This document shows positions 6,048 through 45,600 of a DNA stretch of 64,000 nucleotides, piece by piece. The notes below the pieces were generated by a model. It ran no database searches. It was not told the origin of the DNA and saw only the letters and a list, made by a program, of their open reading frames with translations. Source of the stretch: Alphaproteobacteria bacterium (lineage in GTDB: Bacteria > Pseudomonadota > Alphaproteobacteria > RF32 > CAG-239); contig JAFTYO010000008.1 of NCBI GenBank assembly GCA_017464685.1, forward strand, positions 53,820 through 117,819, given 5' to 3'. Both the position numbers and the translations under genes were made by a program. Each line of letters opens with the position of its first letter. Position 1 is the stretch's first letter.

Positions 6048-6061
6048 AAGAGAATACAAAA

Positions 6062-7560: not shown

Positions 7561-7584
7561 AAGCAAGTTACTGAAGCAAACCCA

Positions 7585-12522: not shown

Positions 12523-12657
12523 ATGAAGTTTGTTTGTAAAATTTTTATAAGTTGTATATTGTGCGCAGGTATTTTAAGTTTATCTGCTTGTGGCAAAATA
12601 TCAGACCCGAAACCGATTGATGGTTCGGGATATCCTCATACGTATCCGAAATATTAA
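12523..12657 (+). CDS. Small lipoprotein (44 aa), unknown function
   Basis: Below the ORF-track size cutoff. My translation is MKFVCKIFISCILCAGILSLSACGKISDPKPIDGSGYPHTYPKY, with lipobox LSAC. Its stop lies 10 nt before the vWA start. Confidence 0.55.
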   Translation: MKFVCKIFISCILCAGILSLSACGKISDPKPIDGSGYPHTYPKY

Positions 12658-12667
12658 GAGGTGTTGC

Positions 12668-14087: not shown

Positions 14088-15541
14088 GTGAAACTGAGTT
14101 TACATATTATAACGCCATATTCAGTGACGGACATTTTGAACGAGAAAAACTCGGCGAACTCTTAAATAAGGGTGGTGCTGCCGGCAAAATATACAAAAGC
14201 ATAACGCACCCGCAACTGGTCGCAAAAATTTTTCATGACAAGAGCAAGAGCCAAACCAACAGACGCAAACTTGAAGCAATGCTCACAAATCGTCCAGCCA
14301 ACAATAAGCTCATTTATGATGGACAAGAAATTATACAAATGACTTGGCCGGAGGCTGTTTTGGAAGATGATCAAGGTTTTTGCGTAGGCTATTTAATGCC
14401 ATTCATTGATACACAAAAAGCAGTATCTCTGGATCATCTCATGCAAAAAGCGGTCAGAAAAAAACTTGGTTTATCCGAAAACTATGCAAATCGTCTGTTT
14501 GCTGCTTATAACATCGCCTCAATTGTTGCATCTCTTCATAAGTGTGGTCATTACATTGTTGACTTAAAACCTTCAAATGTGTTTGTTTACAAAGAAAATA
14601 TGATTGTTGTCATGTTTGACTGTGACGGGTTTTCCATAAAAGGTGATAATATTCGTTATCCGGCAGAATTTGTCAGCGAAGAATATATCTATCCCGAAGG
14701 AATGAGCCAAAACTGTGAACAAATGGGCGAAGAGCAAGATAAATTTGCTTTGGCAGTAATTTTATTCAAACTTTTAAACAATGGTATTCATCCTTTCTCA
14801 GGAACACCTCGAAAGCAAACTGATGAGATGCTTTCAATTCAAAGCCGAATTGAAAATTATCATTATGCTTACGGCTTATGGCCAGATTCTTATCAATCTG
14901 CGCATCCATACAGTATGCACGAATATTTTGATAAAAAAACTCTCAATATGTTTGATAGAGCTTTTGTGAAAAATCAAAAAAGACCGACTGCCAAAGAATG
15001 GCAAGAACATCTTGAAGAACTGTTTAAACAATTAAAAACTTGTAAAAATAATCCGGATCACATTTATTTCACATCTAAAGGTTGCGGACTTTGTGCAATG
15101 GAAGAAAAAATTAAACTAAAATTGCAAAAAATTAAAGATGAAAGTCAAAAGCCGGTAAAAATCAGAGGAATTGAACTCTCTGAACTTTCTAATGAAAAAA
15201 ACAAAGAAATAAAAAAACAAAAGCAACGAGAATTTATAAAACTTAATAAAATAGCTCTTATGGGAATTGTGTTTTATTTTGTTTTCTTTGCCACATTATC
15301 ATTTATCTTGAAACCATATCAGGCTGTTATCACTTCAAACGGTTTGTTTTTACAGCTTTTGCTAATAGCATTGTTTGTGCGCTTGCTGTACAAACTCTTG
15401 CAATTTTTACCGCAAAAATTGCCGCTTTTAAAAAATGATATACTACTTAATATGCTTAAAATTTATGCCTTGATAAACATTTTGATATCTTTTATCATCT
15501 TAAATGGTTTATCTTTTTCGATTTTATCACTCACGGAATAA
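14084..15541 (+). CDS. Membrane-anchored Ser/Thr protein kinase (triad kinase)
   Basis: The start at 14084 forms an ATGA overlap with the phosphatase stop. Kinase motifs: a GGAAGKIY Gly-loop, VAKIF lysine, the YIVDLKPSNVF catalytic loop, a DCDGF (DFG-like) motif, and KFALAVILFKLLNNGIHPF. These are followed by a C-x13-CxxC element, a Lys-rich coiled coil and about three C-terminal TM helices. Confidence 0.8.
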   Translation: MSETEFTYYNAIFSDGHFEREKLGELLNKGGAAGKIYKSITHPQLVAKIFHDKSKSQTNRRKLEAMLTNRPANNKLIYDGQEIIQMTWPEAVLEDDQGFCVGYLMPFIDTQKAVSLDHLMQKAVRKKLGLSENYANRLFAAYNIASIVASLHKCGHYIVDLKPSNVFVYKENMIVVMFDCDGFSIKGDNIRYPAEFVSEEYIYPEGMSQNCEQMGEEQDKFALAVILFKLLNNGIHPFSGTPRKQTDEMLSIQSRIENYHYAYGLWPDSYQSAHPYSMHEYFDKKTLNMFDRAFVKNQKRPTAKEWQEHLEELFKQLKTCKNNPDHIYFTSKGCGLCAMEEKIKLKLQKIKDESQKPVKIRGIELSELSNEKNKEIKKQKQREFIKLNKIALMGIVFYFVFFATLSFILKPYQAVITSNGLFLQLLLIALFVRLLYKLLQFLPQKLPLLKNDILLNMLKIYALINILISFIILNGLSFSILSLTE

Positions 15542-30044: not shown

Positions 30045-31013
30045 TTAAGTGACTTCAGTAATTGCACGCAAGTTACCATCACGATTAATTTGTACAACCC
30101 TCAATTTATGGTGCATTTCTTCAATGGTTTTTGCTCTGTCAATAGTAGGATATGTATGCAAAATACGATCGGTAAAAGCCTGATAGGCGGCTTCTGAACT
30201 TTCGGCGTGAATGGTTGCTAAGCAGTTATCATGACCAGATCCCATCAGTTCCCATAAAGCTCCTGCGTTTGATGTTGAAATCTCACCACCGATAATAGCA
30301 TCCGGAGTAAAACGAACAACCAAGTCAATAATTTTCGAATAGTCCATATTATTTGTTTGTTCAGTACGAGATAAAACCAAATGCACTCTATTTGGATGCG
30401 GAACTAAAAGTTCTCTTGTATCTTCAATAGTCAATACTCTTTTATGAATATCCAAAATTTTCAATAAGTTATTTAAAAATGTAGTCTTACCGGTTGCGGT
30501 TGCCCCGCTAACCAAAATATGATCACCGCGTTTAATACTTAAAAGTAATCTTTCATACGGATCTTCAGGATCTTTAATATCCTTTAAAGGATTAATCTTG
30601 TGCAAAGATTTACCTTGTACCAATCCATATGCATCAAGTCCGAATGCAACTTCATCACTATGAATACGAATCGTTAATGCAACACCTCCGGTTAAATCAT
30701 CATTATCGTACATCACATTTCTGCCGGCAATTGCCGAAAAACGATGATCCCCGGGAATTGTCGCATAAACAACCGGCGATCCTTGTATCGGATCAAAGGG
30801 AAGCTCATAAGTGTTGGCTATAATATATAACAAATCTGTCAAATACTCTTTTGAAAGCTTTTCATCCTTATACATTACCCATGGAAAAGCTCTTTTACCG
30901 CGAAGTCTTAACCATATCTGTCCTGCTTTATTAATTGCAACTTCTTCTATATTTTCTTGGTTGTACCAATATGACAGCGGCCTTAATACCGATTCCAATA
31001 CTGTAAAACTCAT
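30045..31013 (-). CDS. virB11: Type IV secretion ATPase VirB11
   Basis: 322 aa with Walker A SGATATGKTTF, an Asp box (TIEDTREL), and a His box (GSGHDNCLATIHA). It is the last gene of the operon. Confidence 0.92.
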   Translation of the reverse strand: MSFTVLESVLRPLSYWYNQENIEEVAINKAGQIWLRLRGKRAFPWVMYKDEKLSKEYLTDLLYIIANTYELPFDPIQGSPVVYATIPGDHRFSAIAGRNVMYDNDDLTGGVALTIRIHSDEVAFGLDAYGLVQGKSLHKINPLKDIKDPEDPYERLLLSIKRGDHILVSGATATGKTTFLNNLLKILDIHKRVLTIEDTRELLVPHPNRVHLVLSRTEQTNNMDYSKIIDLVVRFTPDAIIGGEISTSNAGALWELMGSGHDNCLATIHAESSEAAYQAFTDRILHTYPTIDRAKTIEEMHHKLRVVQINRDGNLRAITEVT

Positions 31014-31028: not shown

Positions 31029-34000
31029 TTAAAATAATGTTGCTCCGGATCCTGCCGTCGAATTGCTTGACGGAGGTGCCACAACATCTCCCGTTGATGG
31101 TGGCGGTGTTGTAGCATATGATGGCATTTGTTTTGGTGTAGATTTCTTTTGAGGTTCGTCATCTATTAATGCAACTCCTTCAGGTTCAGCATTAGATGAT
31201 TCTCCCCCATAAACCTCTATTTTGCTTCCGGAAGAACCTCCACCGGCTTTAGGAAGGTCTTTTTTATCTTCTTTTTTACCCTCATTACCGTCAATCAAAG
31301 GTCCTGGAGCAACACTTTCTTCTGCTGCCTCTTCTCGCTCACGTGCTGCCGTTCTTATCCATAAATCTACCTTAGGATAAATAATTAATCTGGTACCTGC
31401 CGGAACATATGATACTGCGGCAATATTAGTTTTACTTTCCAAAATTTGGTTAAATATCTCATTCATCCCTGTAATGAAGTTTTGACGTGCATCGCTTGCA
31501 GCATCAGCTCGCGCATCTTCTGTTGAGCCACCATTTCCGTCAGATTTATTTTCACCCGCTGCAGTAACAAATGCCAATGCACTTGTGAGAGTAGATGTAA
31601 CAATCGGTAATGTATATTTTTTGAGCAATTGTTCATCAATGTATCCCAAAGCTCCAGCTCTACCTTGTGCATCACCGGTTTGTGCAGAAGCAAATTCAAA
31701 CGCAGAACCATCCGGACGGATCAATCTTTCCCATGTTATATTAACTCTTACGGCACTGCCTGTTCCGCCTCCTCCATTGAAACCGCCCATTGTTCCCATC
31801 ACACGACTACCTGCAGGAATAACAATATTACGTCCTACTTCGGCATAGATATTTCTTTCAACAATGGCTGTTACAGGCACATTTTCAGCACCGGACATCA
31901 ATGTCCTTGCTAACACGGCCGGAATTGGTTTATCTGCCAAAATCATCTCACTCATATCAACACGCCATGTAGAAATTTTTCTGGGCACACCATCCCAATG
32001 CGTTTGCATGCCATCAAATGCTTCTTTGCTAAACTGTGTCGAAATTTTACCGATAGCTAATTCACTTCTCCTTAAATTTTGGTTTGCATCTAATATTTGT
32101 GCTCGCATCGGATCATACCTTTCACCGGCACCAAACCCCCCTCCGGGTCCTAAATTATTTGGTTGATTTCCTGTTCCATAAGCAGCACCATCACCAAAAC
32201 TTCCGCTAGGAATAAACATTTTATCTGCAGATGTGTTCTTAACTTCTTCAATCCCGACTAAAGCCCCATCATTATCTATAATCAATCCATCAGGCATTTT
32301 TTTGCCTATCATATTACCAAGTTTATCTATTACATCATTGTTTTGTAATATTTCCCCTAAATAGTTGCCATCCGGTGTCAACGCAATACCAATTGCTTTA
32401 AGCCCATATTTACCAGTAGCTTTTTCTGTTTCAATTTGCTGACTTATTTTTTCAGCTGGTTCAGGGGCACTCAATTCGCCCATTTTAATCTTGGTATCTT
32501 CTTCCTGTGTCTGTGTTTTTATAACAGGTTTTTGAATATTATAATATTGCAAATAAAAAGCTTTGGCAAACATCTTACCTTTTTCATTTCTGATATCACC
32601 ATTACTGTCAATTTTTCCTATAACTGAGTTTGTATTATCTACTATATCTCCATTTATTTGCAACTCACCTATGATTTCATTACTACGATTACGGATAAAA
32701 TAGTCTCTTGCACCTCTTCCGATAATATTATATTCTTTATCAATCAAAAATCCTCTATCAGCTTTACCTAAACGATTCCCCGAAAATCCTACCACACTTC
32801 CACCTTGAGTCAGATATCCGATTGCTTTATTGTTTTCATCATAAATATAGACATCATATAGAGCATAACCTATCTCTTTTCCTTCTGATACAACCTCTCC
32901 ATTATGAGTTACTTTTGCCAAAACTTTATTTTCATTACTTATAACTTCACCTAACCGATTAACTCTACCAATAAAATTATTTTCTTTATCAAAAGCAAAT
33001 TTATACTTAAAGGCCATACCGATGATCTTCTTTTTGTTTTGAGCTACGATATTTAAATTAGGTAATACATAACCGACAATTTCATTGTCTATATTCACAA
33101 CTTTACCTGACAACAATACTCGTCCAATCATAACATCATCATAATTTATCACCGGATCAGATGTAACGACCGCTCCTTTGAATGTATTATTAGAATCATA
33201 AAGTCTGCCATCACTCCTTATACAACCTAAATCAGCTTGTTCATAATTTAATACTCGACCTAAGGCAGTCACTGTTCCAAGATTGTTACCTCCGAAATCT
33301 GTAACCAAGCCCTTTAGTGGAATAAAACTATTCACTATTTGTGTATCGGAAACAACTTGACCATTTGTTAAGACTCTTCCAATTACAATATCTCGACTAT
33401 TACGAACATCTCCTCTCGGACTTACGACTCCTGAAAACTCACATGAATCATTAACGACACCTCTAAAACCGACTAACTTACCGATAATCGAGTTATCATT
33501 TCCTATTACTGTTTCGTTTTCAACAACAGAACCTATCTTATTTAATTGAAAATCATAAACAATACCGTCTCTTCTTACATATCCGAGCATATTTCCGTTA
33601 ATACCTACAGCTATTTGATTATTTCCGGCATATCCTATAATAGGCATCAAATTATCTTTTACATCATTTGTACTTTCAACTGCTTGATATTCAGGTATTA
33701 TTTTAGCAATCACCGTACCTGAATTATTTATAACCAAGTTATTTTGACCCAAATGTCCTAATGATTCCATTTGAAGAGACATAACATAATATGGATCTAT
33801 GTTATACCCAATCAAAAGATTTTGTTCATCTATAAGTTGCCCGAATTGTGTAAGTTTAACTTGTCTCTCGGTGGGCATACCCGATATTTTACCATCTACA
33901 TCAACATAGCCTTTTGCTAATCCAGCTTGATCATATACTGTTGTCAAACCGATTGCATTTCCTGTCAAAATATTATCACTTGAATATACATATCCAAAAG

Positions 34001-35255
34001 GTGATACTTTATATTTGATATTTTCTTTATTAAAATCAGCACCTATAAAATTCATTCCCAATATGGTATCAGATAAATTTATAATTTGCATAGGCTCCAT
34101 TCCGGCTCCAAGCATTCTGCCAATGTTATCAAAAACATATTGTCCCTTCACATATCCTACCAAAGTTCCCTTTGTTGATACTGCGGATCCACTGCGTAGA
34201 GCTATCGCACTTAAATTACCTAAATAATCAAAAACAGGACCGGCATATGTCACTTCTCCTATAGGAGCACCATCAATATTATACACAATACCTCTGGCTC
34301 CCACACTTCCTATAACATCTGTTGTTTTGACAATTTTACCATCAGGAATGACACGTCCCAGATATTTTCCATTAAAATCGGTAGCGGTTGCCGATATTTC
34401 AATAAAATAACCTATTACTTTACCCTTTGTATCAATAATCTTATTATCTGCCCGTAATCTGCCTACTGTTTCACCTTTATTTATTACTTCTCCGTTATAT
34501 GATATAAAACCAAGATATTTACCATATGTGTCTATAGTATACCCTCCAGTAATAACTTTTCCTACTATTTGATTGTCTTTATTGTATACATAACCATTTG
34601 CGTGCACACTTCCTATTACCTTAGCATCAAAATCCGTAACTTTTCCACCGGGAGCAACGCTGCCTATAAACTCTCCGGTTAGTGAAACAACCATTTTAGA
34701 TGATACTAATTTACCATCCAATACATAATCTGTTCCTGTATTTTTATATGCATATCCCATTGCGGAAACAAAACCGATGTTTTGACCCTCTATACTCACA
34801 TATAGTCCGTCACCGGTTAAACGCCCAATTGTATCTCCTTCATTGTTATATATTAATCCCGGATATAATACAGCACCTATTATGTTGTATGAATCATCAA
34901 CAACTAAGGCATTTGGTAAAGTTTTACCGATAATTTTTCCTGTAGGAAGACGTACCGTACCATCATTATTTACCTTACCTAAAAACTTATTATCATTGCC
35001 AATTGCAATACCTTGCGGAACAACTCCACCAATAATTTCATTATTATTATTTACAATAAAACTGTCTGCCGTTACTTTACCGATAATATCATTTTGCTTA
35101 CCGATAACTGAACCATCAGGAATCACGGTACCTATTATATCACCATTAAAATTTATGGCTGTAATTTCATTTGCATATGCATTTGATGCCATGTATACCG
35201 TCATCAATATAAATAATCCGGCAATTTTTAATGTTTTATGTAACATATTCAGCAC
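31029..35255 (-). CDS. virB10: Giant VirB10-family protein: N-terminal hydrophobic segment, about 970 aa of short Gly/Ile-Gly repeats, TrbI/VirB10 barrel domain, and a Pro/Ser-rich acidic tail
   Basis: 1408 aa. The GTG start at 35255 lies 6 nt after GGAGGA. Residues ~1095-1302 carry VirB10/TrbI hallmarks: IPAVLARTLMSGAENVPVTAIVERNIY, IPAGSRVMG, RVNITWERLIRPDGSAFEF, GDAQGRAGALGYID and YVPAGTRLIIYPKVDLWI. Residues ~30-1000 are repeats of the form ..G..IG.V...G.V.... Confidence 0.88.
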   Translation of the reverse strand: MLNMLHKTLKIAGLFILMTVYMASNAYANEITAINFNGDIIGTVIPDGSVIGKQNDIIGKVTADSFIVNNNNEIIGGVVPQGIAIGNDNKFLGKVNNDGTVRLPTGKIIGKTLPNALVVDDSYNIIGAVLYPGLIYNNEGDTIGRLTGDGLYVSIEGQNIGFVSAMGYAYKNTGTDYVLDGKLVSSKMVVSLTGEFIGSVAPGGKVTDFDAKVIGSVHANGYVYNKDNQIVGKVITGGYTIDTYGKYLGFISYNGEVINKGETVGRLRADNKIIDTKGKVIGYFIEISATATDFNGKYLGRVIPDGKIVKTTDVIGSVGARGIVYNIDGAPIGEVTYAGPVFDYLGNLSAIALRSGSAVSTKGTLVGYVKGQYVFDNIGRMLGAGMEPMQIINLSDTILGMNFIGADFNKENIKYKVSPFGYVYSSDNILTGNAIGLTTVYDQAGLAKGYVDVDGKISGMPTERQVKLTQFGQLIDEQNLLIGYNIDPYYVMSLQMESLGHLGQNNLVINNSGTVIAKIIPEYQAVESTNDVKDNLMPIIGYAGNNQIAVGINGNMLGYVRRDGIVYDFQLNKIGSVVENETVIGNDNSIIGKLVGFRGVVNDSCEFSGVVSPRGDVRNSRDIVIGRVLTNGQVVSDTQIVNSFIPLKGLVTDFGGNNLGTVTALGRVLNYEQADLGCIRSDGRLYDSNNTFKGAVVTSDPVINYDDVMIGRVLLSGKVVNIDNEIVGYVLPNLNIVAQNKKKIIGMAFKYKFAFDKENNFIGRVNRLGEVISNENKVLAKVTHNGEVVSEGKEIGYALYDVYIYDENNKAIGYLTQGGSVVGFSGNRLGKADRGFLIDKEYNIIGRGARDYFIRNRSNEIIGELQINGDIVDNTNSVIGKIDSNGDIRNEKGKMFAKAFYLQYYNIQKPVIKTQTQEEDTKIKMGELSAPEPAEKISQQIETEKATGKYGLKAIGIALTPDGNYLGEILQNNDVIDKLGNMIGKKMPDGLIIDNDGALVGIEEVKNTSADKMFIPSGSFGDGAAYGTGNQPNNLGPGGGFGAGERYDPMRAQILDANQNLRRSELAIGKISTQFSKEAFDGMQTHWDGVPRKISTWRVDMSEMILADKPIPAVLARTLMSGAENVPVTAIVERNIYAEVGRNIVIPAGSRVMGTMGGFNGGGGTGSAVRVNITWERLIRPDGSAFEFASAQTGDAQGRAGALGYIDEQLLKKYTLPIVTSTLTSALAFVTAAGENKSDGNGGSTEDARADAASDARQNFITGMNEIFNQILESKTNIAAVSYVPAGTRLIIYPKVDLWIRTAAREREEAAEESVAPGPLIDGNEGKKEDKKDLPKAGGGSSGSKIEVYGGESSNAEPEGVALIDDEPQKKSTPKQMPSYATTPPPSTGDVVAPPSSNSTAGSGATLF
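31350..31973 (-). other. TrbI/VirB10 C-terminal barrel domain within the giant VirB10
   Basis: Coordinates derive from my residue count (aa ~1095-1302) and are approximate to about 30 nt. Confidence 0.75.
32256..35168 (-). repeat. Coding repeat region of giant VirB10 (degenerate ~9-17-aa units, core G-x-x-[IVL]-G-x-[VIL])
   Basis: Seen directly in the translation, e.g. NGDIIGTVIPDGSVIGKQNDIIGKVTADSFIVNNNNEIIGGVVPQGIAIGNDNKFLGKVNNDGTV. Confidence 0.8.
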
Positions 35256-35256: not shown

Positions 35257-38200
35257 TTAGTTCCTCCGATTTTGAGCTACTTCTTGCATTGCATAACCGG
35301 CCACCTGTTTATCTAAATTAACAAAGGAGCCATTACTTTTTAAATATCCTATTTCTTGACCATTAATACCTCTAACTCTTCCATTTGAGGATAAATAACC
35401 AAGATATTTACCATCAGAGGAAAGTATAGATATCCCTATTTTATAAATAGTTCCCATCACATTATTTTGATTATCAATCGCTAATCCTGATGATAAAACT
35501 TTTCCTATAATACTTCCGTCAAAAGATTTTATTTGGCCATCAAATAAAACAAAACCGACGACTTCATCTTGATTATTGATTACAATATCTCCACTTACAA
35601 TTTCACCAATAAATTTACCTTCCGTATTACTTACTTTACCGTCAGAATGAACATTTCCGATGATAATATTTTTGGTGTTTGATACGGTTCCATCAGGCAA
35701 TACAACGCCTATGACATTACCTCCAAAATCAATGACCGTTCCTCTTTTTAACACACTTATATTCTTATCTGTTGATCCTCCTGGAAGCACAAAAGTCATA
35801 AAAGACCCATTCAAACTCATAAGCTCACCGAGTTCATTGGTATAACCTTTATAATTTCCGAAAATATCAATCGCCGGCAGTTCTTCAACCCGCTCTCCCA
35901 GAATATTTTGTGTATCATCTAAAATCAATCCGCTACCATTTTCATAAGCAATAATTTTTCCTTGTTGATTTATAACATCGCCATTTGATAACACATAACC
36001 TAAATATGACCCATCATATCCTATAGCGGCACCGGATTTCACAATCGCTCCCATATACTGACCTTTATCATTAAACCATCTGCCACTTGAATCAGAATTT
36101 CCTATATTTTCACCAAACCTGTTTATAACTCTGCCGTCATAATTTATAAAACCTGATTTTTCACCATTGACATTCCTTACACTTCCCATTTGTAAAGGTT
36201 TTGCATTAAGTGAATTATAAAAACTGTAACCATCACCATAAACTTTATCAATGGCAACACCTTTGGAATCATAAACTTTTCCATCTGCAAAAATACGGCC
36301 AACTTCTTCAGAAGATGAGCTGATTACCCGATTATATTCCGGTAATGCTATACCTATAATACGATTCTTCTCACTGACAATGTATTTATGTAAAAGCATT
36401 TTTGCTCCCGGATAATCTTTTAGTACAAAAGTTCCGTCTTCTTTAAAAGTTGTCATCAGATTACCCTTCATATCAAAGATATAAAATTTATCTGACATTT
36501 TACCTAAATATGCTCCTTTAAAATCAAAAGCCTCACCGCTTGCCGCAACACAACCAACAGGTTTTGATGAAGCTATTACTTGTCCATTAGGATTCATCCT
36601 TCCGATAACTGAACCATTTGCAGCATATATTGCTTTGTATTCGGCAATTTTTCCTATCACTTCACCTTGCTCATTTAATACTGTACCATCCGGATTTGTA
36701 CAACCAACATAAGTGTCTTTATTTTTAACTACACCTTGCTCATTTGCCGCACCTAAGTAATTGCAGTGTTCATCAAATACTTTTCCTGTCTTCACGGGAT
36801 GTCCGACATAAATTCCTTTTTCATCATACACACTACCATCCATGTGTACCCTATATGGCATTGGTTTATTATTTTTGGTTACAATACCATCTTTGCCCAA
36901 CACTCCATTATTACTACATCCCCATCCTATAATCAATGACCCTTTAACGCCTTTACCGATATAGTTTGCTCCTGTATTGTCTTTTATCAATCCATTAGGA
37001 AGCATTCGACCAAATACTTGGCCCTCTTCATTTGTAATATCACCACTGGAGGAAACTATTCCTAAAACAGTTCCGTTCGGTCCTATCGGAACCAATTCGG
37101 TTTTTACTACCGAACCAATATATTCTTTTTCATAGGCAACTACATACCCATCTTTATCTAACACTCCGATAATGTTTCCATCTTTATCTATGGCATTTCC
37201 GTTTTCATCGATATATCCTATCACATTCCCGTTCTCGTCTACCATAATCGTGGCATAATCACCTGCTTTACCTATTGTATTACCCTCATTATCAACAATT
37301 GTTCCATCTTCTAGCATCTTACCGATTGTATTTCCGCTAAAATCTATAACATTACCGTTTTCATCAACATATCCGATTACATTACCGTTCTCATCATAAG
37401 CCATCCTTCTTGATTCACCGGCCTTACCTAATGCTTTATAAACATTATTATTTTCATCGACATAACCCAAAAGTGTGCCATTAGTACCAAATACTTCATT
37501 GTTTTCACCGACATACCCTATTACATTGCCATTTTCATCAAGTACAACATCGGCATATTCACCGGCCTTGCCGATAGTCTTTCCGTTTTCATCGACAATC
37601 GTTCCATCTTCTAGCATCTTACCTACGGTATTCCCGTTAAAATCAATTACATTACCGTTTTCATCAACATATCCGATTACATTACCGTTCTCATCATAAG
37701 CCAGTCTTCTTGCTTCTCCTTTGCGACCTAACTTTTCTTTATCTACTTTATAAGCTAAACCATTTTCATCTACATACCCGACAATATTACCCTCAGCATC
37801 TACAATAGAATTATCAGGCATTATAACACCGAGAACGTCACCGTTTTCATCAACTGCCGTACGGCCTGATTTACTGACATGACCTATCACATTACCGTTT
37901 ATATCTACAACTTCACCATCCTCATTTAGTCGCCCTATCACATTACCGTTTTGATCAACAACCGTTCCATCATCAAGGACTCTGCCTATTATATTTCCGT
38001 TGTCATCATAAACAAAACCGGCATCAATAGCTTTTCCTATAACATTGCCGTTTTCATCAACAACAGTTCCATCTGCCAATACTTTTCCAATTACATTACC
38101 CTTAAAATCAACTGCCGTACCATCCGGTGTAACAAAACCAACAATATTACCATTATCGTCATAAATGAGTTTTTTATTACCGGCAACACCTATAATATTG

Positions 38201-39126
38201 CCGTCGTTATCAACTACCAAACCGTCAGCATTAACTCTGCCAACAATATTACCATTCTCGTCTCTTACATATCCGTCATCATCTATGTATCCTAAAACAT
38301 TTCCATCAGGATCATAAGCAACTCTCATCTTTGATGTATCAGCGCTAACTCTTCCTATAACATTTCCGTTTTCATCAACAACTTCACCTTTTTCATTGAC
38401 TTTTCCTATAACATTTCCGTTTTCATCAACTACTGTTCCATCATCAAGGACTCTACCGATTATATTTCCGTTTGCATCTCTTACAACTTTTGCCCCGTTA
38501 GAATTTATAGGTAATGCTGTATCACAATAATTACAGTTTTCTTTTTCAATAGCACGTCCCTCAACCGGAACTTTTTGCGCTTTGGCATTAGATGCACTAA
38601 CATTTGTTTCATGCCATGAAACAATAAAATTATTTTGAACATTTCCCGAAACAACAGGAGCCCACTTCATTGTAACATTGCAAGTTTGGTTTCCTCTTAG
38701 TTCAGCACTTGTACAATTATCTTCAAAAACAAAACCATCAAAAGGCGGCTCTGCTAATTTAACAGATACAATCCTTATAGCTCCTTTTCCGTTTGTACCG
38801 ATTGTAAGCACATTTTGAGCTTCTGTCCCCAGAACTACTTGCCCCATTGATACCGGATTGGGTGTGGTTGTTATCGGATCTTCAACTTCTTCCATATCGT
38901 CAAACTCTATAGTTTCCATTAAAGCATCACCGGATTCTTCAATACCTAACACATCAGCATCATCCGAAAAAACAACCTCTTGTTCAACAACTTCTCCAGA
39001 ACCACTTGAAAACAGCAACAAAAGACCAAACAGAAAAACCACAAACGAAGTTATTCCAACTATTAATATAATTCGATTAGTCTTACGAACATAGCGTTCC
39101 GAAGATGTTAATACCTCTTTACTCAT
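35257..39126 (-). CDS. Membrane-anchored giant repeat protein encoded between virB9 and virB10 (no known T4SS counterpart)
   Basis: 1289 aa. Its ATG overlaps the virB9 stop (ATGA), and its stop TAA lies 1 nt before the virB10 GTG. Architecture: a short cytoplasmic N-terminus and one TM helix (IILIVGITSFVVFLFGLLLLF); an acidic linker; a putative Ig-like module (aa ~92-175); a highly regular D-E-N-G-N-V-I-G repeat array (aa ~210-665); then about 600 aa of degenerate repeats of the same type as in VirB10. Confidence 0.85.
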   Translation of the reverse strand: MSKEVLTSSERYVRKTNRIILIVGITSFVVFLFGLLLLFSSGSGEVVEQEVVFSDDADVLGIEESGDALMETIEFDDMEEVEDPITTTPNPVSMGQVVLGTEAQNVLTIGTNGKGAIRIVSVKLAEPPFDGFVFEDNCTSAELRGNQTCNVTMKWAPVVSGNVQNNFIVSWHETNVSASNAKAQKVPVEGRAIEKENCNYCDTALPINSNGAKVVRDANGNIIGRVLDDGTVVDENGNVIGKVNEKGEVVDENGNVIGRVSADTSKMRVAYDPDGNVLGYIDDDGYVRDENGNIVGRVNADGLVVDNDGNIIGVAGNKKLIYDDNGNIVGFVTPDGTAVDFKGNVIGKVLADGTVVDENGNVIGKAIDAGFVYDDNGNIIGRVLDDGTVVDQNGNVIGRLNEDGEVVDINGNVIGHVSKSGRTAVDENGDVLGVIMPDNSIVDAEGNIVGYVDENGLAYKVDKEKLGRKGEARRLAYDENGNVIGYVDENGNVIDFNGNTVGKMLEDGTIVDENGKTIGKAGEYADVVLDENGNVIGYVGENNEVFGTNGTLLGYVDENNNVYKALGKAGESRRMAYDENGNVIGYVDENGNVIDFSGNTIGKMLEDGTIVDNEGNTIGKAGDYATIMVDENGNVIGYIDENGNAIDKDGNIIGVLDKDGYVVAYEKEYIGSVVKTELVPIGPNGTVLGIVSSSGDITNEEGQVFGRMLPNGLIKDNTGANYIGKGVKGSLIIGWGCSNNGVLGKDGIVTKNNKPMPYRVHMDGSVYDEKGIYVGHPVKTGKVFDEHCNYLGAANEQGVVKNKDTYVGCTNPDGTVLNEQGEVIGKIAEYKAIYAANGSVIGRMNPNGQVIASSKPVGCVAASGEAFDFKGAYLGKMSDKFYIFDMKGNLMTTFKEDGTFVLKDYPGAKMLLHKYIVSEKNRIIGIALPEYNRVISSSSEEVGRIFADGKVYDSKGVAIDKVYGDGYSFYNSLNAKPLQMGSVRNVNGEKSGFINYDGRVINRFGENIGNSDSSGRWFNDKGQYMGAIVKSGAAIGYDGSYLGYVLSNGDVINQQGKIIAYENGSGLILDDTQNILGERVEELPAIDIFGNYKGYTNELGELMSLNGSFMTFVLPGGSTDKNISVLKRGTVIDFGGNVIGVVLPDGTVSNTKNIIIGNVHSDGKVSNTEGKFIGEIVSGDIVINNQDEVVGFVLFDGQIKSFDGSIIGKVLSSGLAIDNQNNVMGTIYKIGISILSSDGKYLGYLSSNGRVRGINGQEIGYLKSNGSFVNLDKQVAGYAMQEVAQNRRN
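37120..37719 (-). repeat. Tandem duplication of a 300-bp (100-aa) super-repeat
   Basis: 37301-37410 aligns with 37601-37710 at an exact 300-bp offset. 37349-37403 and 37649-37703 are identical over about 55 nt. At protein level, GEARRLAYDENGNVIGYVDENGNVIDFNGNTVGKMLEDGTIVDENGKTIGKAG matches GESRRMAYDENGNVIGYVDENGNVIDFSGNTIGKMLEDGTIVDNEGNTIGKAG. Confidence 0.9.
37132..38499 (-). repeat. Highly regular coding repeat array (core DxNGN[VI][IVL]G)
   Basis: I count at least two dozen G-N-x-[IVL]-G cores by eye between aa ~210 and ~665. Confidence 0.85.
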
Positions 39127-40802
39127 TGAACTCTAACCACACTACAAAATACGCCGTTTCTACCTAATTGACCACAAATCTGATCCCCAGTATCAATCGA
39201 TTCAACAGGTCCGATCCTCAAATGGAACAACTCTTTACCTTGACCGTCTGCCGGAGCATCAACAGAATAAAATGGTTGATAACCACCTAATACCGTATTG
39301 TATTTTCTAGATAATTCTTGCCATAAATCTTCAAGATTATTTACATCAGCATCTGTACCAAGTTCAACAGAAATACTGGCAGCATTTTGATTTTCGAAAC
39401 CTTGACCAAAACGATATCCATTAAAAGCAACTCCTTTATCATTTGTATTTGCAACAGATGAATTTGAAGCTTGCTTCTCTAGAGCCTTCTTAACATATTC
39501 CGGAATTAAAAGCTCACCGTTAGATCCGAATTTTACCGTATATTCTCCAACCAAACGCTCACCTGAAGCATCTGATGCCTCCGATTTAGCTGAAGTTAAA
39601 CCCTCACTATTACTAGAGCCATTTTGTCCTAATGTAATTGAAGAAGAAATGGGAGCAACGTTTACCTCCGGCTCAGGTTCAGGCTCAGGCTTTTTATTTA
39701 TATCTATAAGCTCAAAGCCCTGAACAACACTTTCCTCTTGAGGTTTTACTCCGCTAGCAGTTCCTGTAGGAATATTCCAATTATTTTGCGGAGCCTTGGG
39801 CGCAAATTCCGTGCCTTGGTCATCTGAACGACGCAACTTTAAACAGACCAATCTCTTGCCGTTACGTAAAACCATATCCCCTACTCCCTCAACAATAATC
39901 AAACGATTATCGGGACCTGCGCTTCTGAAACCAACAGGAGTTTCAACACGCTCAACTATTAAAGTTACTATAGGTCGTTGCACCATTGTCAAAGCTCTTT
40001 CACCAAAATCAATATAGGTAAAAATATCATCACGCCACACTCTTTCAGGAGCAATCACGACATCATCCGGATTAGGAACATAAACCTCTATATCAAAACG
40101 AAACTTTGTAGGATCTAAAGGAAGACTTTTAATCCAATCATCTTTTTGATTACGCTTTGTAAATGTAGAATCAACCGACTTTGCTCCTCCATTAAAGTTA
40201 CTTGCGTTTATTCGTCCTCCTGATCCGGTCATACCTGATATATTTTGACCTCCTCCGGAATTTCCGTTTGCTCCAACAACTTCAATATCAATAACAGAAT
40301 TTGTTAAACGTTCAGTGTTAAAGCCCTCACTTCTGGCATAAAAAACATATTTATTACCCGAACGACCAAATACTATAATATTGGTATCTACACCAAAGCC
40401 ATTTTGAGGATATAATAAAAGTGTATTAGGACCGGAAATTTGTCCTGTAAATTTATTATTATCACCAATGTATACATCTTCTATCATTTCCCACTCTGGA
40501 AAATTCACAAGCGTTAACATCCCTTCTCTCAAACGCAACGGCAACACCAAATCAGGCGACCAGTAATATTTAGAATATGCAGGTTTTGTTTGTCCTTCAC
40601 CTAAATTTTGCAACGGATCAAGCCACGCACTTTGAGTCATACCTAATGAACCCATAGCATAGCTCATATTCATAGAAGGATACTGCCCTTGTGCATTATT
40701 AGCTGTTTGATCAAGGCTATTCATGGTTACTTGTGCCTTAACATCAAAACTAACCAAAAACAACATTACTGCATAAATTATTTTAGTTACATTATTTTTC
40801 AT
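39123..40802 (-). CDS. virB9: VirB9/CagX-family outer-membrane core protein with a long C-terminal extension ending in a SPOR-like domain
   Basis: 559 aa with a signal peptide. The VirB9 N-domain pattern is LTLVNFPEWEMIEDVYIGDNNKF ... NTLLLYP ... DTNIIVFGRSGNKYVFY. The VirB9 C-domain pattern is PERVWRDDIFTYIDFGE ... RLIIVEGVGDMVLRNGKRLVCL. A PEPEPEPE linker and a Ser-rich region follow, and the last ~85 aa look like SPOR. Confidence 0.85.
   Translation of the reverse strand: MKNNVTKIIYAVMLFLVSFDVKAQVTMNSLDQTANNAQGQYPSMNMSYAMGSLGMTQSAWLDPLQNLGEGQTKPAYSKYYWSPDLVLPLRLREGMLTLVNFPEWEMIEDVYIGDNNKFTGQISGPNTLLLYPQNGFGVDTNIIVFGRSGNKYVFYARSEGFNTERLTNSVIDIEVVGANGNSGGGQNISGMTGSGGRINASNFNGGAKSVDSTFTKRNQKDDWIKSLPLDPTKFRFDIEVYVPNPDDVVIAPERVWRDDIFTYIDFGERALTMVQRPIVTLIVERVETPVGFRSAGPDNRLIIVEGVGDMVLRNGKRLVCLKLRRSDDQGTEFAPKAPQNNWNIPTGTASGVKPQEESVVQGFELIDINKKPEPEPEPEVNVAPISSSITLGQNGSSNSEGLTSAKSEASDASGERLVGEYTVKFGSNGELLIPEYVKKALEKQASNSSVANTNDKGVAFNGYRFGQGFENQNAASISVELGTDADVNNLEDLWQELSRKYNTVLGGYQPFYSVDAPADGQGKELFHLRIGPVESIDTGDQICGQLGRNGVFCSVVRVQ
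39126..39380 (-). other. SPOR-like (septal peptidoglycan-binding) domain at the VirB9 C-terminus
   Basis: ISVELGTDADVNNLEDLWQELSRKY...ELFHLRIGPVESIDTGDQICGQLGRNGVFCSVVRV. This fits the beta-alpha-beta-beta x2 SPOR pattern (..vqlG.......A..l...l........yRvriGPf.s...A..lC..L...G..C.vv). The match is to a remembered pattern only. Confidence 0.55.
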
Positions 40803-40815: not shown

Positions 40816-41565
40816 TTACTGCGTTTTATTACGAGAAAGTGAATATCTTGTCACGGTAAAACCGATAGGATTATTTAACCTTTCATCATACTTAACATTT
40901 TTCTTACGATATGCTATCCTTAATGATGCCGTCCAATATTCAATCTGCGGAGAGGATGATGACGGATACATATCTTTTGTTTCATATTCAACCTGCCATA
41001 GACCACGCCCCAATTCATTAACGGTCATAATCCTGACAGATCTGGTTAAGCCCTTATTTTTAATGATACCAAGAGCCTTATTAGCTGTTTTATCTATAAA
41101 TGCCTGATATACTGCAGACGATGACATTTCTTGAATAGGCCCCCCCGGCATCCAACGAGACTCCATTTCACGAATATCATTGGAAAATGCACTGCGCATC
41201 AATACATATTCACGCACAAACACTTCCGTAATTTCTTTTTTATCTTCCATATTAGCAATCGGCCTAATATCATAAACTTGCTCTTGCTTATTTTCAAAAG
41301 TCAAAATAAAAGGCTCCAATCTATACAACGGCATTAATTGGGTAATGGCTAAAATAAGCACAAAATTGCAACACAAACTTACGGCCACGATAACTGCAAA
41401 TGCCCTTGCCGTCCATAAATATCTGCGCTCAGAAGCATTTACCACAATATCGTCAACCGGTTTTTTACCAGAAACAGGATTTCTTCTTATGTGTTGTGAA
41501 GAAGACATCTGCCTGTTGGGCAACATTCTTTGTTGTATGTTATTTACGCCTAACTGTTCAGCCAT
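40816..41565 (-). CDS. virB8: VirB8 (copy 1)
   Basis: 249 aa with an N-terminal cytoplasmic region, a single TM helix, and a periplasmic NTF2-like domain ending in the conserved NPIGFTVTRY motif. Confidence 0.88.
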   Translation of the reverse strand: MAEQLGVNNIQQRMLPNRQMSSSQHIRRNPVSGKKPVDDIVVNASERRYLWTARAFAVIVAVSLCCNFVLILAITQLMPLYRLEPFILTFENKQEQVYDIRPIANMEDKKEITEVFVREYVLMRSAFSNDIREMESRWMPGGPIQEMSSSAVYQAFIDKTANKALGIIKNKGLTRSVRIMTVNELGRGLWQVEYETKDMYPSSSSPQIEYWTASLRIAYRKKNVKYDERLNNPIGFTVTRYSLSRNKTQ

Positions 41566-41572
41566 ATTTCAC

Positions 41573-41761
41573 CTATATTGTAGCTACAAACCAATCCGGC
41601 AAAGTGTGAGGTAATTCCACTTCTATGCATGCACATGGAGACAATTTGAGCTCATTTACATCTTTACCTACACCAACCGGTTCAGGTTCATAATATGAAC
41701 CAAACATTCCGCATGCTGATAAAAACAACAACACCAGAAATAAAATTATTTTTCTACTCAT
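41573..41761 (-). CDS. virB7: VirB7-like small lipoprotein
   Basis: The track ORF extends to 41794. I prefer the ATG at 41761 (MSRKIILFLVLLFLSACGMF...), giving 62 aa with lipobox LSAC and additional Cys. The call rests on size, lipobox and position next to virB8/virB9. Confidence 0.5.
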   Translation of the reverse strand: MSRKIILFLVLLFLSACGMFGSYYEPEPVGVGKDVNELKLSPCACIEVELPHTLPDWFVATI

Positions 41762-41909
41762 TGCAATGTTCCTTACAACTATATATCCAGACAATCTCTA
41801 TGTTAAACTTGTTATTTTTAAAAGTCTAACATGAAGCAAACAAATCCCCAACTTATCAACAAGTCAGAAACCGTTTTATGATATCATAAACTAAAAAGAT
41901 TAAAATAAG

Positions 41910-42668
41910 TTAAAGAATTTCAACTTCTGTTTGAGAATATCTTGTTACGGTAAATCCAAGCGGATTCATTAATCTCTTTGACATAAACATACGCTCAGGA
42001 ACAAAAACAGCCACAATTGAAACTGTCCAATATCTTGTTTTTAACACAAATTCCCCCGTTGTATCATTTCGATTTTGGGGTGATAATTCATATGTTTTAA
42101 AATCCACTTTCCAAACCGGCGATTTTTCACCACCAACTTTACCTACCGAAATTATCTCTACATCTCTTATGATTTGCGTTTTTGAAGCATCTGCCAAATT
42201 TTTTTCTACCGTATTGGAAAATTCTGCAAAAATTTTATCTGATGATAAATAATTTATCATTCCTCCACCAAACCAACGGCTTTGCATTTCTCGTTCATCA
42301 CCTACTATAGAGTTGCGAATTATAACATATTGTCTTATAAAAAGCTCCATCATTTGCGGCGCTGACGGCATATTTGGTGATATTGTCTCATATCTGACCA
42401 TCTCTTCGGAATTACTCTGCCTGATTATTAAAAACGGCTCTACATGAACTTCAGATGTCAAATTAAATAATACCAGTGATGCACTTGTAAAAAACATCAA
42501 TGATAATATAGCAATAAAAGCAACAAATCTTGAAAGCCAACAATAATAGTTTTCTCTTGCTAAACTTCCCATAACATCAACATCAGTAATATAATTTGCA
42601 CTTTTCTTAGCAGATTGAGCTGACGTTAATGCTAATATTTCATTTGTTGAGCTTAATTGATTGTTCAT
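41910..42668 (-). CDS. virB8: VirB8 (copy 2, divergent paralog)
   Basis: 252 aa with the same architecture as copy 1 and a C-terminal NPLGFTVTRY motif. Confidence 0.85.
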   Translation of the reverse strand: MNNQLSSTNEILALTSAQSAKKSANYITDVDVMGSLARENYYCWLSRFVAFIAILSLMFFTSASLVLFNLTSEVHVEPFLIIRQSNSEEMVRYETISPNMPSAPQMMELFIRQYVIIRNSIVGDEREMQSRWFGGGMINYLSSDKIFAEFSNTVEKNLADASKTQIIRDVEIISVGKVGGEKSPVWKVDFKTYELSPQNRNDTTGEFVLKTRYWTVSIVAVFVPERMFMSKRLMNPLGFTVTRYSQTEVEIL

Positions 42669-42683: not shown

Positions 42684-45600
42684 TCAATATACAGCACAAT
42701 ATGGTACCATAACATTATTGGCATTTTCTTTATACGACTTTTCAACTTCTTTGTCATATTCTCCTTTCGTATCTCCATCAGCCTGAGCCGTCTTCAGACG
42801 TTTTTCAACTTCATCAAGACTGAGCATATCCGACAGACTTACCAATTCTTTATTATCCATTTTAAGCATTGCCAATGTGTTGTTGTTTTTTGATATCTTT
42901 TCTCTTAACAAATCATTCTTTCCGACAAAGCCTTTTAACATTTTATCTGCCTTATTGACTCTGCTTTCTTTTTCTAAATTCAATCTATTGAGAATCTCTT
43001 TATATGTGGCATTATCTGCTAAATCAAACTTTTCAGGCGGTGTGTATCCATATTTCTCAAACTCGGTTATAAGCTTTTGTCTGGCCTCATCAATCTTAAC
43101 TTCCATCTGATCTAATGATTTCTGATATTCCATTTCTCCCTCAACAAATTTTATATAATCACCAAATTGGTTTTTATCTAATATCATATTATCATACAAT
43201 CTTTTTCTCGTCTTGTTATAATCATCATCCAATTCTGCCAAAAATTCCATCGCATCATTTAACGACTGATTGATTTGTAATCCTGATGTTGATCTGGCAA
43301 ACAATGAAATTTCACTCAAATTCTTTTCCTCTATTTCATACCTATCAAGAGAAGCTGTAGCCACATCATCATCAAAAAATGTCAAATCAATATATTGCGC
43401 ATATTTGTCTTTTTCGCCTTCTTTTGAAGCTTTTTTAACCAACACACTATACACTCTATAATCTTTAATATGTTTACAACTTGGATAATCTGCTTTATAA
43501 CTTCCCCGATAATGACCGTTTTCAATATCAATGGTATACGAATCATCTAATAAGCATGGATACAAACCTCCTCGCATAAGCTCATCCGTATATTGTATAT
43601 CATGATAATAGTGCTTATTGCCATTATCTGATAAAGGCAATATCGGAACATCTTTTTCTACAAATCCTTTGGGCCCCAAAATTCGTTTCCAAACTTCAGG
43701 AACAAAATCTGTATATACAACTGTTTTTTCATCTTGATCTTGGCAGAAATATTCTTTTCCATCACCATCACAACTTGTGCTAAGCATCGCACCAACATTC
43801 AGTAACCCATTTTTGGTAATAAAGCCGCTCTCTGATAGCGCAAGATTATCATAATCTATACCATCAAGATGCACAAATTCTCTTAATGGAGGCATATATG
43901 TTTGCACAATTGTTTTAGGCGTAGCAAAATCTTTACCATTGGGCACTATACCAACATAATATTGTGTATCAACGTTATAACAGGCATTACTTTGACATAT
44001 TTCATCAAACAATTTTCCGGCCATTACCTCAACAGCAAGTCTTTCAACGGCTGCTAATTGTACATATCCTGTTAAATAGTCTATATAATCTTCCAAATCC
44101 ATTGTCGGATTTTTAATTTTATCTAACATTTCCTTATGTATCTTGACAATTTCATTGTGCTTTTCAATATCAAAGATATCATCTTCCATATCTTGTATTT
44201 TTTCATAGGCCTCATTAACTGCATTTAATGCATTTTGACGAACAATTTCTTCTGCTTTTGCCGCTGTATCAATTAAACTTTTAAATATTCTGTCTTTGAT
44301 AGTCCCCGTATAACTTATAAGAGTATTAAGTGTTGAGGCTTCTACATCTTTTAACTCTTCATATGCATTATTTAATTTTACTTCAGCAAGATATTCCATA
44401 TATGCTGCATCTTGAGCATATTGAGCTTTTAAGTTTTTAAGCTCCTTCTTTTTTCTTTCCAATTTGTCTTTAAGATCATCAATTTTATATCTCAAACTCT
44501 CTGTTTCAGATAATGCTTTTTTGGCTTTCTCTTCAGAAGATAAAATTGTTTTTTCAGCATTAGCTATTTGTTTTTCTGCACTGTTTTTAATGTTAGATAT
44601 ATTAACATGCTCTGATTTATCGGCTCTGTCTTTGGCTAAATCAACTATCATATTTTCAGCATTAATCTGACTATTTGCATCGTTTTTTTCTTCTTGTGCT
44701 TTATTATAAACCATTTTGGTATCATTTAACTCAATGTTAAGTTCATCAAGCTCTTTATATATCCCATTAATTTCACCTACCAAAGCATCTTTGCTTTCCA
44801 AAAACTCTGTTTGTTTTTTTCTCATTTCGATATCTAATGTATCTTGTGTGTTTTTTACACCATCAATATTTGCAGATGCATATTCTTCTATTGCTTCTGA
44901 TAAGCTGTTAAAACCATCTGTATTATATGAAACAACATCTTCCAGTAATATACCTCGCATTTTTGGGCCTTCATAATCCTCTGCTTCTTTTTCTTCCTCA
45001 TCTTCTTCAACATAAATTTCATTGCTTATTTTTTTTGCTAAAGATAATGTTGATTTGCGCATATCAAAACTATTTAAAAATATTTTCATATTTGAATATT
45101 TATTTTCAAGATATTGTTCATAAAAATATTTTTCATCATTCCACATCGGATATTTATTTTTAAAAGTTCCGTATACCGAATTTTCGCCTAGCATCATTTC
45201 ATTACCGATCTTCTTTGACATTAAAGCCCCTAATTGCCACGCCAAAATTTCTCGTTCTCTGTCATTTTGTTCCATCTTAAGCTCATCTGTCGGTTTTATC
45301 AACGAACTATCATCCAAATTTTGTTCATTTTCCGCAATCAACTCTTTTTCGGTTTCTTCCATATCATCTAAATTTGATATCGATTGTGTTGATGATATAT
45401 CAGCATCGTTTAGTTGCGTAGCATAATCATCACTTGAAAATTCCAACGTCTTTTCTGCTTTAGCAATTTTATATGCTGACAACAACCAACCAGCCAAGCC
45501 TCCACGACGTTCATATCGATTAAGTCCATATGTCGAACAAATTTTAGTACTATCATTCTGGCATAAAGAATCTCCTTCTACTAACGTAGATAAATTATCT

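Follow-up and report, generated by a model that had tools for sequence, protein, structure and literature searches.

A giant beta-flower VirB10, probably divided between two coupled genes, in a type IV secretion locus of gut Alphaproteobacteria

A stretch of 64,000 nucleotides (nt) from Alphaproteobacteria bacterium (contig JAFTYO010000008.1; “the window” below always means this whole stretch) carries, on its minus strand, a type IV secretion system (T4SS) locus in which an open reading frame (ORF) of 1289 amino acids (aa) lies between virB9 and virB10. We have named this ORF X (35257..39126, ATG start). Comparison with related loci shows that the boundary between X and virB10 is an evolved gene split, and neither a frameshift artefact nor the edge of an inserted gene. 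It is probable (at roughly three chances in four) that X is the inner-membrane, N-terminal half of a split giant VirB10 built of beta-flower repeats, and that the two halves dock to rebuild the bridge between the membranes. A preliminary description, made from the letters of the sequence, had taken X for a novel gene inserted between virB9 and virB10; X instead derives from virB10 itself, and sister lineages have one gene of ~2200 aa at the same place.

X, its homologues and its boundary with virB10

The homologues of X fall into two kinds, the first being X-like proteins of 1100-1580 aa that are 36-46% identical to X, share its N-terminus, end in NRRN and lack a TrbI domain. Proteins of the second kind combine Bflower repeats with TrbI and exist in two forms: one of ~1550-1890 aa, which, like the VirB10 of the window, has a putative signal peptide and then EITAIDFNGD at its start, and one of ~2200 aa, which starts as X does, with the tail S-x-x-Y-x-K-K-S-N-R and a transmembrane (TM) helix, and which also has an immunoglobulin (Ig) domain with the same two Cys as well as the motif CxxC[DE] at residue ~190-200. 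In one locus with a single-chain protein (L003), the order is VirB8 - small ORF - VirB8 - VirB9 - 2202-aa Bflower+TrbI protein - VirB11. Residues 1-260 of X are collinear with residues 1-260 of this 2202-aa protein (tail, TM helix, Ig domain and CxxC), while residues 961-1408 of the window VirB10 are collinear with its residues 1721-2112. Since X and VirB10 align to the two ends of the single-chain protein, X is the N-terminal part of such a giant VirB10, with a gene of its own. BLASTP of X against the single-chain protein P0036 gave 2e-109, collinear from residue 1; the N-termini of the split and fused forms align with 10 invariant columns, and the core motif of the tail, S-x-x-Y-x-[KR]-K-[ST]-N, is common to split and single-chain giants. 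The VirB10-like N-terminus of X had been noticed before, and genuine giant VirB10 proteins of the single-chain type do have a homologous N-terminus; the suggestion made with it, that VirB10 function is divided between two polypeptides, is the best-supported reading of the data. Public annotation lists giants of the X/VirB10 type as “DUF3659 domain-containing protein” or “hypothetical protein.”

In its layout X has the bitopic N-terminus of VirB10/TrbI proteins, a short tail and a single TM helix (Table 1), and its gene stands between virB9 and virB11 in a virB-type operon, the place also held by canonical VirB10/TrbI (TraF of pKM101, TrwE of R388, ComB10). The canonical tail and TM helix are here on X, whereas the TrbI domain with its two long helices is on the neighboring ORF. 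Pfam and NCBIfam scans found no TrbI domain (PF03743) in X; because this domain sits on the next ORF, X alone is not a complete VirB10. The positive-inside character of the tail supports an N-in topology, and the invariance of all eight cysteines of X in 32 orthologues fits a periplasmic location, so that, judged by these topology signals, the tail would lie in the cytoplasm and the remainder of X in the periplasm.

The module behind the acidic linker had been guessed to be an Ig/ASH-type beta-sandwich from its pattern. Direct matches are sub-threshold, both for ASH (PF15780; 18.1 bits, cut-off 27, E 0.003) and for the NCBIfam choice-of-anchor D family (choice_anch_D; 20.7 bits, cut-off 45). 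The AlphaFold2 (AF2) model of X, which covers residues 90-1289 and was built from an alignment of 31 orthologues, gives the module a predicted local distance difference test (pLDDT) score of 72-82, and the only high-probability Foldseek matches in the PDB (0.95-1.0) are ASH/PapD-like domains, HYDIN, CEP192 and ciliary central-pair proteins (2e6j for HYDIN, 6fvi for CEP192, 7n6g and 7som; 76-101 aligned columns). Further, a search of 1.84 billion representatives with the module profile retrieved thousands of proteins with many tandem copies, up to 37, one of which scores ASH at 1.4e-143. Combined, the Foldseek matches and the profile links to multi-ASH proteins support the Ig/ASH assignment.

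Translational coupling had been claimed on both sides of X, and both junctions are exact. At the virB9/X junction (caATGAgt) the ATG of X (39126-39124) shares a 4-nt overlap with the TGA of the VirB9/CagX gene; at the X/virB10 junction (...AAT CGG AGG AAC TAA c GTG) the stop codon of X (35259-35257) is followed after one base by the GTG at 35255. Of 81 related loci, 74 have an X-type ORF with the end N-[RK]-[RW]-N immediately before the TrbI ORF, GTDB species representatives being among them, and short or truncated contigs are among the remaining 7; in one of the split loci (L001), for instance, an X of 1373 aa is followed by a VirB10 of 1407 aa. The final Arg-Arg codons of X are CGG-AGG in 63 of the 74, in DNA with a G+C content of 32-40%, and these codons put a GGAGG 7-9 nt upstream of a GTG, TTG or ATG, with this start 1-6 nt past the stop of X. 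As to the hosts, a TrbI-domain scan of GTDB species representatives matched 289 genomes, and the best 80 of these, which we surveyed, are all uncultured gut or rumen Alphaproteobacteria (human, mouse, chicken, rabbit, ruminant), with Candidatus Scatocola and “Proteobacteria bacterium CAG:495” as examples; we take these hosts to belong to the GTDB order RF32. Two full split-VirB10 loci (L014 and L063) come from public metagenome-assembled genomes labelled Lachnospiraceae and Lactobacillaceae, probably through mis-binning or mislabelling.

The VirB10 ORF of the window is 1408 aa long when read from the GTG, and public assemblies call the ATG three codons further on (1405 aa). Its leader has a 13-residue h-region and an A-x-A site and no TM-length hydrophobic segment, and throughout the split clade the A-x-A site is retained, as is the start of the mature protein, EITAI[DN]FNG. 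By this pattern, VirB10 of the split clade has likely gained a cleavable signal peptide.

The two ORFs lie one base apart in different frames and a single gene exists in related organisms, as would be the case if a frameshift in sequencing or assembly, or else a recent mutation to a pseudogene, had broken one virB10. However, the identical 1289-aa X is present on 5 independent metagenome contigs, so X is not an assembly artefact, and the same boundary recurs in the 74 loci of different species, where it is marked by a conserved stop codon, a start codon with its embedded GGAGG and a conserved putative signal peptide with A-x-A, both halves being conserved. As far as sequence data allow, conservation of the boundary refutes the frameshift or pseudogene reading, which retains next to no probability. 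The preliminary description had mentioned that X might be the frameshifted 5' part of a single virB10; this is true in the evolutionary sense, as X is the 5' part of the ancestral gene, and false in the sense of an error, given the conserved boundary. On one contig with an identical X (L084), the downstream gene (5881-7593) encodes 570 aa of Bflower repeats plus a His_Phos_1 domain in place of VirB10, and this product is either a chimeric assembly or a rearranged variant.

The repeat array and the beta-flower family

From residue 215 to its end X consists of ~1075 aa of 17-residue hairpin repeats, near-perfect in the first part and degenerate in the second. The period of 17 aa (51 nt) is seen in the glycine autocorrelation (0.44 at lag 17) as well as in the 51-nt period given by Tandem Repeats Finder. 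The exact motif D.NGN[VI][IVL]G.V occurs 10 times in X; dropping the trailing V raises the count to 13 and relaxing the motif to 22-26, with nearly all copies in residues 217-647, against 0 to 0.6 expected from 200 shuffles. An earlier count of two dozen almost perfect units was slightly generous, holding for the relaxed motif only; the accompanying statements, that degenerate units fill the remainder of X to residue 1289 and that the two proteins together carry roughly 2000 residues of repeat, stand, since the degenerate units are copies of the same 17-aa unit and the ~1075 aa of X are joined by ~900 residues in VirB10. The near-perfect part includes a 300-nt tandem block (residues ~470-543 and ~570-643), and the C-terminus of X is conserved (...GSFxxxDKxVxGYxxxEVAxNRRN).

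The repeat had been treated as an unnamed family, which it is not: X scores far over threshold for the Pfam families Bflower_2 (260.1 bits, cut-off 38, 1.8e-78, in 11 stretches) and Bflower (131.5 bits, cut-off 25). These families were made for the beta-flower, a fold found in models of the AlphaFold database, with [DNEQ]xxG at the hairpin tip and without a PDB relative or a known function (Durairaj et al., 2023, PMC10584680). The tip motif [DNEQ]xxG matches 26 times in X, compared with 0.57 expected in shuffles. Like the beta-flower families PF21784 and PF21785 (clan CL0395) and DUF3659, which it resembles in its Pfam scores, X lacks PDB relatives, a PDB sequence search with X having returned none. 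Each beta-flower described so far is one small domain (~96 aa, 8-12 strands) that has not been assigned to any machine, and some are lipoproteins (PMC10584680), whereas the X/VirB10 pair concatenates about two dozen modules inside a T4SS subunit. The fold-discovery paper (PMC10584680) was the only beta-flower literature that we found.

A resemblance to YD/Rhs and DUF3659 repeats had also been pointed out, and these Pfam and NCBIfam matches are real (DUF3659, 128 bits; RHS_repeat, 54.5 bits, cut-off 22; YD_repeat TIGR01643, 55.9 bits, cut-off 15.8). The RHS_repeat and YD_repeat scores could be taken to mean that an unrelated repeat protein had entered the operon by insertion and that X is, for example, a toxin shell of the Rhs/YD type or a surface adhesin. 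The best family is nevertheless Bflower_2 by far; the Pfam and NCBIfam scans detected no RHS core, toxin domain or secretion signal in X, the N-in TM anchor would keep X at the inner membrane, and the N-terminal 260 residues are homologous to genuine single-chain VirB10. We consider such an insertion very improbable. Foldseek matches of the repeats to the TccC RHS shell (6sue_F; probability 0.11, TM-score 0.06), to a designed “Scone” protein and to fascin were rejected for their low probability.

The AF2 model of X is all beta (mean pLDDT 82.4), with strands of 5 and 3 residues alternating regularly and hairpins every 17 residues. Its predicted template modelling score (pTM) of 0.67 over 1200 residues points to a defined global arrangement, though not to closure of the hairpins into the shallow barrels of the beta-flower fold, which have 8, 10 or 12 strands and 4-, 5- or 6-fold symmetry, and suggests a rigid rod as opposed to beads on a flexible string. 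In the AF2 model of VirB10 (residues 209-1408), the repeats at residues 209-908 have a pLDDT of 85-95.

From one chain to two

We know of no characterised VirB10, TrbI, CagY or DotG homologue that is not a single chain with an N-terminal TM anchor and a C-terminal barrel, and a single-chain giant is thus the parsimonious ancestor. In a neighbor-joining tree of the TrbI domain (unrooted, displayed with midpoint rooting) the split, signal-peptide forms make up one clade and the fused, TM-anchored forms the other, and the split would appear to be a single derived event from a single-chain ancestor. Two reciprocal clades in an unrooted tree give no direction, and the split form could in principle be the older one, the ~2200-aa proteins having arisen when an X-like gene fused with the gene of a signal-peptide VirB10. 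All the characterised homologues just named speak against this order of events; moreover, no relic hydrophobic segment (signal peptide) was found in the middle of the array in 38 single-chain homologues, 37 of which have one N-terminal TM segment (~residues 17-44), and the single-chain length is tightly constrained, as expected of the older state. We give a fusion origin only a slim chance.

That constraint is visible in the single-chain giants (P0035-P0094), which at ~25% identity have a median length of 2197 aa (standard deviation 39 in 37 clusters, range 2015-2251), suggesting a strict limit of length or geometry that has been relaxed in the split clade. In the 66 complete pairs of split forms, X ranges over 1099-1737 aa and mature VirB10 over 1365-2052 aa, with sums of 2547-3449 aa. 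Close relatives with identical N-termini have an X of 1289 to 1702 aa, and of at least 2265 aa on one truncated contig. In the closest relative (L004), TrbI is 96-98% identical and X ~80% identical, with one ~120-aa block indel located at the 300-nt tandem duplication in X. The DNA repeats of X are 60-82% identical (the longest pair, 219 nt, at 81%), and with repeats no more alike than this the array is not a recombination substrate in the style of CagY. The lengths of X and VirB10 are uncorrelated in the 66 complete pairs (r = -0.12); an apparent compensation between the halves in a 31-pair subset (r = -0.56) was a regex artefact, confounded by phylogeny, that was lost with all 66 pairs.

Several points weigh against the reading of X and VirB10 as docking halves of one split protein. 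The direction of change rests on parsimony with other known VirB10 proteins, the TrbI tree itself being unrooted. The summed halves are 350-1250 aa longer than the single-chain form, so that a simple cut is not the whole history. The fission point found no unique place on the single-chain proteins: windows of 120 aa from X and from VirB10 fall mostly on the near-perfect repeats of P0036, and hidden Markov models (HMMs) of the X C-terminus and of the mature VirB10 N-terminus match several single-chain positions with similar scores, while in the larger single-chain group the positions that these two junction HMMs match (~1450-1548 and ~1495-1589) overlap and are not adjacent. The TrbI part of the VirB10 AF2 model is also of low confidence (pLDDT 25-55). 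Finally, a partial duplication followed by loss would yield the same present-day arrangement.

Such a duplication is the substance of another explanation, in which X stems from a tandem duplication that copied only the 5' half of a giant virB10 and serves as an accessory periplasmic scaffold or paralogue; VirB10 would have lost its TM helix and be held by other contacts, and the two chains need not reconstitute a single bridge. The excess length fits this origin, as do the repeat windows of X and VirB10, which best match the same single-chain regions, and the overlapping positions of the two junction profiles in many single chains. Yet repeat arrays expand and contract readily, as the range of X from 1289 to >2265 aa illustrates, and the excess is easily explained as having followed fission; none of the loci seen combines a copy of X with a full-length, TM-anchored VirB10, and the junction-proximal modules are the most conserved repeats of both proteins. 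On balance, we regard a duplication origin as unlikely.

Fission of a single giant virB10 accommodates these data in the following way. The ancestor would have been one gene of ~2200 aa with the canonical bitopic layout of VirB10 (tail, TM helix, periplasmic region, C-terminal TrbI barrel), in which the periplasmic region had been replaced by an ASH-type Ig domain and about 1500 residues of 17-aa beta-flower hairpins. In the clade of the window a stop codon would then have arisen inside the repeat array, leaving X with all parts from the tail through the Ig domain and with about 63 hairpins, which make up roughly a dozen beta-flower modules, while VirB10 would have acquired its putative cleavable signal peptide and kept about 50 hairpins together with the outer-membrane TrbI domain; the GGAGG in the final codons of X would couple the translation of the two genes. 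Gain and loss of hairpin blocks would subsequently change the length of both arrays.

In the cell, X would sit in the inner membrane with its tail within reach of the cytoplasmic ATPases and extend a rigid beta-flower rod into the periplasm. VirB10, exported by Sec, would be held through its TrbI domain in the outer-membrane core complex with VirB9 and VirB7, and two long predicted helices (VirB10 ~residues 1208-1273, modelled with low pLDDT) are candidates for the outer-membrane antenna. Sequence matches of the TrbI domain in the PDB are to ComB10 (2bhv, 1.4e-24), CagY, TrwE and TraF. The conserved C-terminal modules of X would dock non-covalently on the conserved N-terminal modules of the secreted VirB10, so that both chains would rebuild the inner-to-outer-membrane bridge, with any transmission of energy passing across this joint, and add a very large periplasmic scaffold. 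We propose docking because the two chains were once one and are always adjacent and coupled, and because the junction-proximal repeats are the best conserved and the high pTM suggests a rigid rod. The conservation score is 0.62-0.74 in the first 200 residues of mature VirB10 and 0.67-0.70 in the TrbI domain, compared with 0.31-0.50 in the middle of the array; in X it rises again toward the C-terminus, to 0.68 in the final 40 residues.

The usual stoichiometry of VirB10 is ~14-fold. At that number there would be more than 300 beta-flower modules per machine, and they could conceivably form a new multi-megadalton cage or sheath, periplasmic or partly surface-exposed, with a length tuned by repeat blocks; this is a tentative idea, and we think it rather doubtful. 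If it were true, splitting the chain would have released VirB10 from the single-chain length constraint, the “dark” beta-flower fold would gain a first function, and the inner-to-outer-membrane coupling of VirB10 could be seen to work via a non-covalent joint. The more general suggestion of the preliminary description, a dedicated fibre or sheath that spans the periplasm or is exposed at the surface, is a plausible one.

Known giant VirB10 proteins and the surrounding locus

Giant, repeat-bearing VirB10 proteins are already known in CagY and DotG (PMC6761968). What is new here is the beta-flower type of the repeat, its scale (about 2000 repeat residues) and the stable division into an inner-membrane chain and an outer-membrane chain that is presumably exported by Sec. 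CagY, of the Helicobacter pylori Cag T4SS (~1900 aa), is likewise a giant VirB10 with a huge repeat region before a conserved C-terminal domain, and the C-terminal domain of the window VirB10 matches CagY chains in the PDB. The CagY repeats are of a different, non-homologous type, varying by recombination between highly similar DNA repeats, and CagY is one polypeptide, whereas here there are two, the distal half with a putative signal peptide. The number of CagY repeats varies between strains, and DotG of the Legionella/Coxiella Dot/Icm system has a TrbI-like C-terminus and a variable middle of short repeats, with lengths from 1000 to more than 1500 aa (PMC6761968). DotG has pentapeptide repeats in a single chain of a type IVB system, in contrast to the 17-aa beta-flower hairpins, the split and the rvh-like type IVA order described here. 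The literature that we could search on VirB10, DUF3659 and gut-alphaproteobacterial secretion contains no description of a beta-flower VirB10 or of a split VirB10. In these abundant, uncultured gut Alphaproteobacteria a giant, repeat-bearing VirB10 has been invented a third time, CagY and DotG being the other two cases, and their locus gives the beta-flower fold, so far seen in AlphaFold models only and lacking a function, a place in a defined machine and compartment.

At about 380-450 aa, a canonical VirB10 crosses both membranes as a single chain, and its periplasmic linker is short and rich in proline; here about 2000 aa of beta-hairpins stand in place of that linker, and the chain is broken. 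To our knowledge, VirB10 is thought, from work on Agrobacterium and pKM101, to be the sole T4SS subunit that spans both membranes as one chain. It is also thought to relay ATP-dependent conformational changes, which start at the ATPases of the inner membrane, to the pore in the outer one. A clade that has stably cut its VirB10, with a ribosome-binding site embedded at the cut and a putative new signal peptide behind it, amounts to a natural experiment on the need for covalent continuity.

Table 1. Positions in the window of the parts of X and VirB10 and of the neighboring T4SS genes
Feature	Position	Strand	Remarks
X residues 1-18, basic cytoplasmic tail	39073..39126	-	MSKEVLTSSERYVRKTNR; 5 K/R, pI (isoelectric point) 10.3, positive-inside
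X residues 19-39, single TM helix, predicted inner-membrane anchor	39010..39072	-	hydropathy scan; only hydrophobic segment of X, core ~residues 19-39
X residues 40-89, acidic linker, poorly conserved	38860..39009	-	residues 40-90: 17 D/E, 0 K/R
X residues 90-190, ASH/PapD-like Ig beta-sandwich	38557..38859	-	two invariant Cys (C138, C149)
X residues 191-214, conserved CxxC[DE] motif	38485..38556	-	C198, C201; low-confidence linker in AF2
X residues 215-660, near-perfect 17-aa beta-hairpin units	37147..38484	-	D-x-N-G-N-V-I-G-x-V + x-x-D-G-x-V-V
X residues 661-1289, degenerate beta-flower hairpins	35260..37146	-	four invariant Cys (737, 788, 809, 859); pLDDT 85-94
GGAGG Shine-Dalgarno sequence for virB10	35263..35267	-	inside the X Arg-Arg codons CGG AGG
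VirB10 residues 1-27, Sec-type signal peptide pattern	35175..35255	-	MLHKTLK-IAGLFILMTVYMA-SNAYA/NE
VirB10 residues 28-908, second beta-flower hairpin array	32532..35174	-	Bflower_2 1e-37
VirB10 residues 1105-1298, TrbI/VirB10 C-terminal domain	31362..31943	-	Pfam TrbI 7e-28; NCBIfam ComB10, VirB10
VirB11 ATPase, final gene of the cluster	30045..31013	-	T2SSE domain
VirB9/CagX homologue, 559 aa	39123..40802	-	long C-terminal extension; stop overlaps X start codon
VirB8 - small lipoprotein - VirB8	40816..42668	-	rvh-like order B8-B7-B8-B9-[B10]-B11
VirB7-like small ORF between the two virB8 genes	41573-41794	-	lipoprotein-like leader (…LFLSAC…)

In order of transcription, the cluster starts with two VirB2/TrbC-like proteins and VirB4, followed by four proteins without family matches (484, 217, 404 and 1427 aa); then come VirB8, a 73-codon lipobox ORF, a second VirB8, VirB9/CagX and X, and the cluster ends with the 1408-aa protein that bears the C-terminal TrbI/VirB10 domain and with VirB11. 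Because housekeeping genes flank it (the ATP synthase operon, priA, prmA and lpx genes), the T4SS is chromosomal. The rvh T4SS of Rickettsiales has the order rvhB8-II / rvhB7-rvhB8-I-rvhB9-II-rvhB10-rvhB11 (PMC4676284). The window matches this order, VirB8-VirB7-VirB8-VirB9-VirB10-VirB11 with a duplicated VirB8. RvhB10 is of ordinary size and a single chain, and the rvh hosts are Rickettsiales, whereas the hosts of the split VirB10 are uncultured gut Alphaproteobacteria. In the window virB11 is followed by a FadL-type gene and not by virD4.

The small lipoprotein ORF between the virB8 genes is, judged by its sequence, probably VirB7, and counterparts of 63-65 aa are called in L001 and L003. 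VirB9 is unusually long, its C-terminal extension measuring ~230 aa, and has 491 aa in the relative with the single-chain VirB10 (L003); its residues 485-557 (39132-39350, minus strand) give a weak match, under the cut-off (E 0.003), to SPOR, a peptidoglycan-binding domain. Just upstream of the VirB8 genes, the 1427-aa protein (42684-46967, minus strand) has an N-terminal hydrophobic leader and 14 Cys but zero Pfam or NCBIfam matches, and its counterpart in L001 has 1324 aa. No polytopic VirB6/TrbL-like protein was recognised anywhere in the T4SS cluster.

The two TrbC/VirB2-like pilin genes are in tandem (53115-54686, minus strand), and one of the pilins, at 328 aa, is unusually large for a VirB2; it has three hydrophobic segments, and its C-terminus is extended by a long acidic stretch (pI 4.05). 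The T4SS locus is adjoined by a cluster on the plus strand (57202-62459) with a TcpQ-like protein, a secretin, a PilO-type pilin accessory protein and a family-less 521-aa protein, which resembles a type IVb pilus or R64 thin-pilus-like system. Unconnected to X, a VWA-domain protein, an ORF at 13275-14087 and a eukaryote-type Ser/Thr protein kinase are encoded at 12590-15541 on the plus strand.

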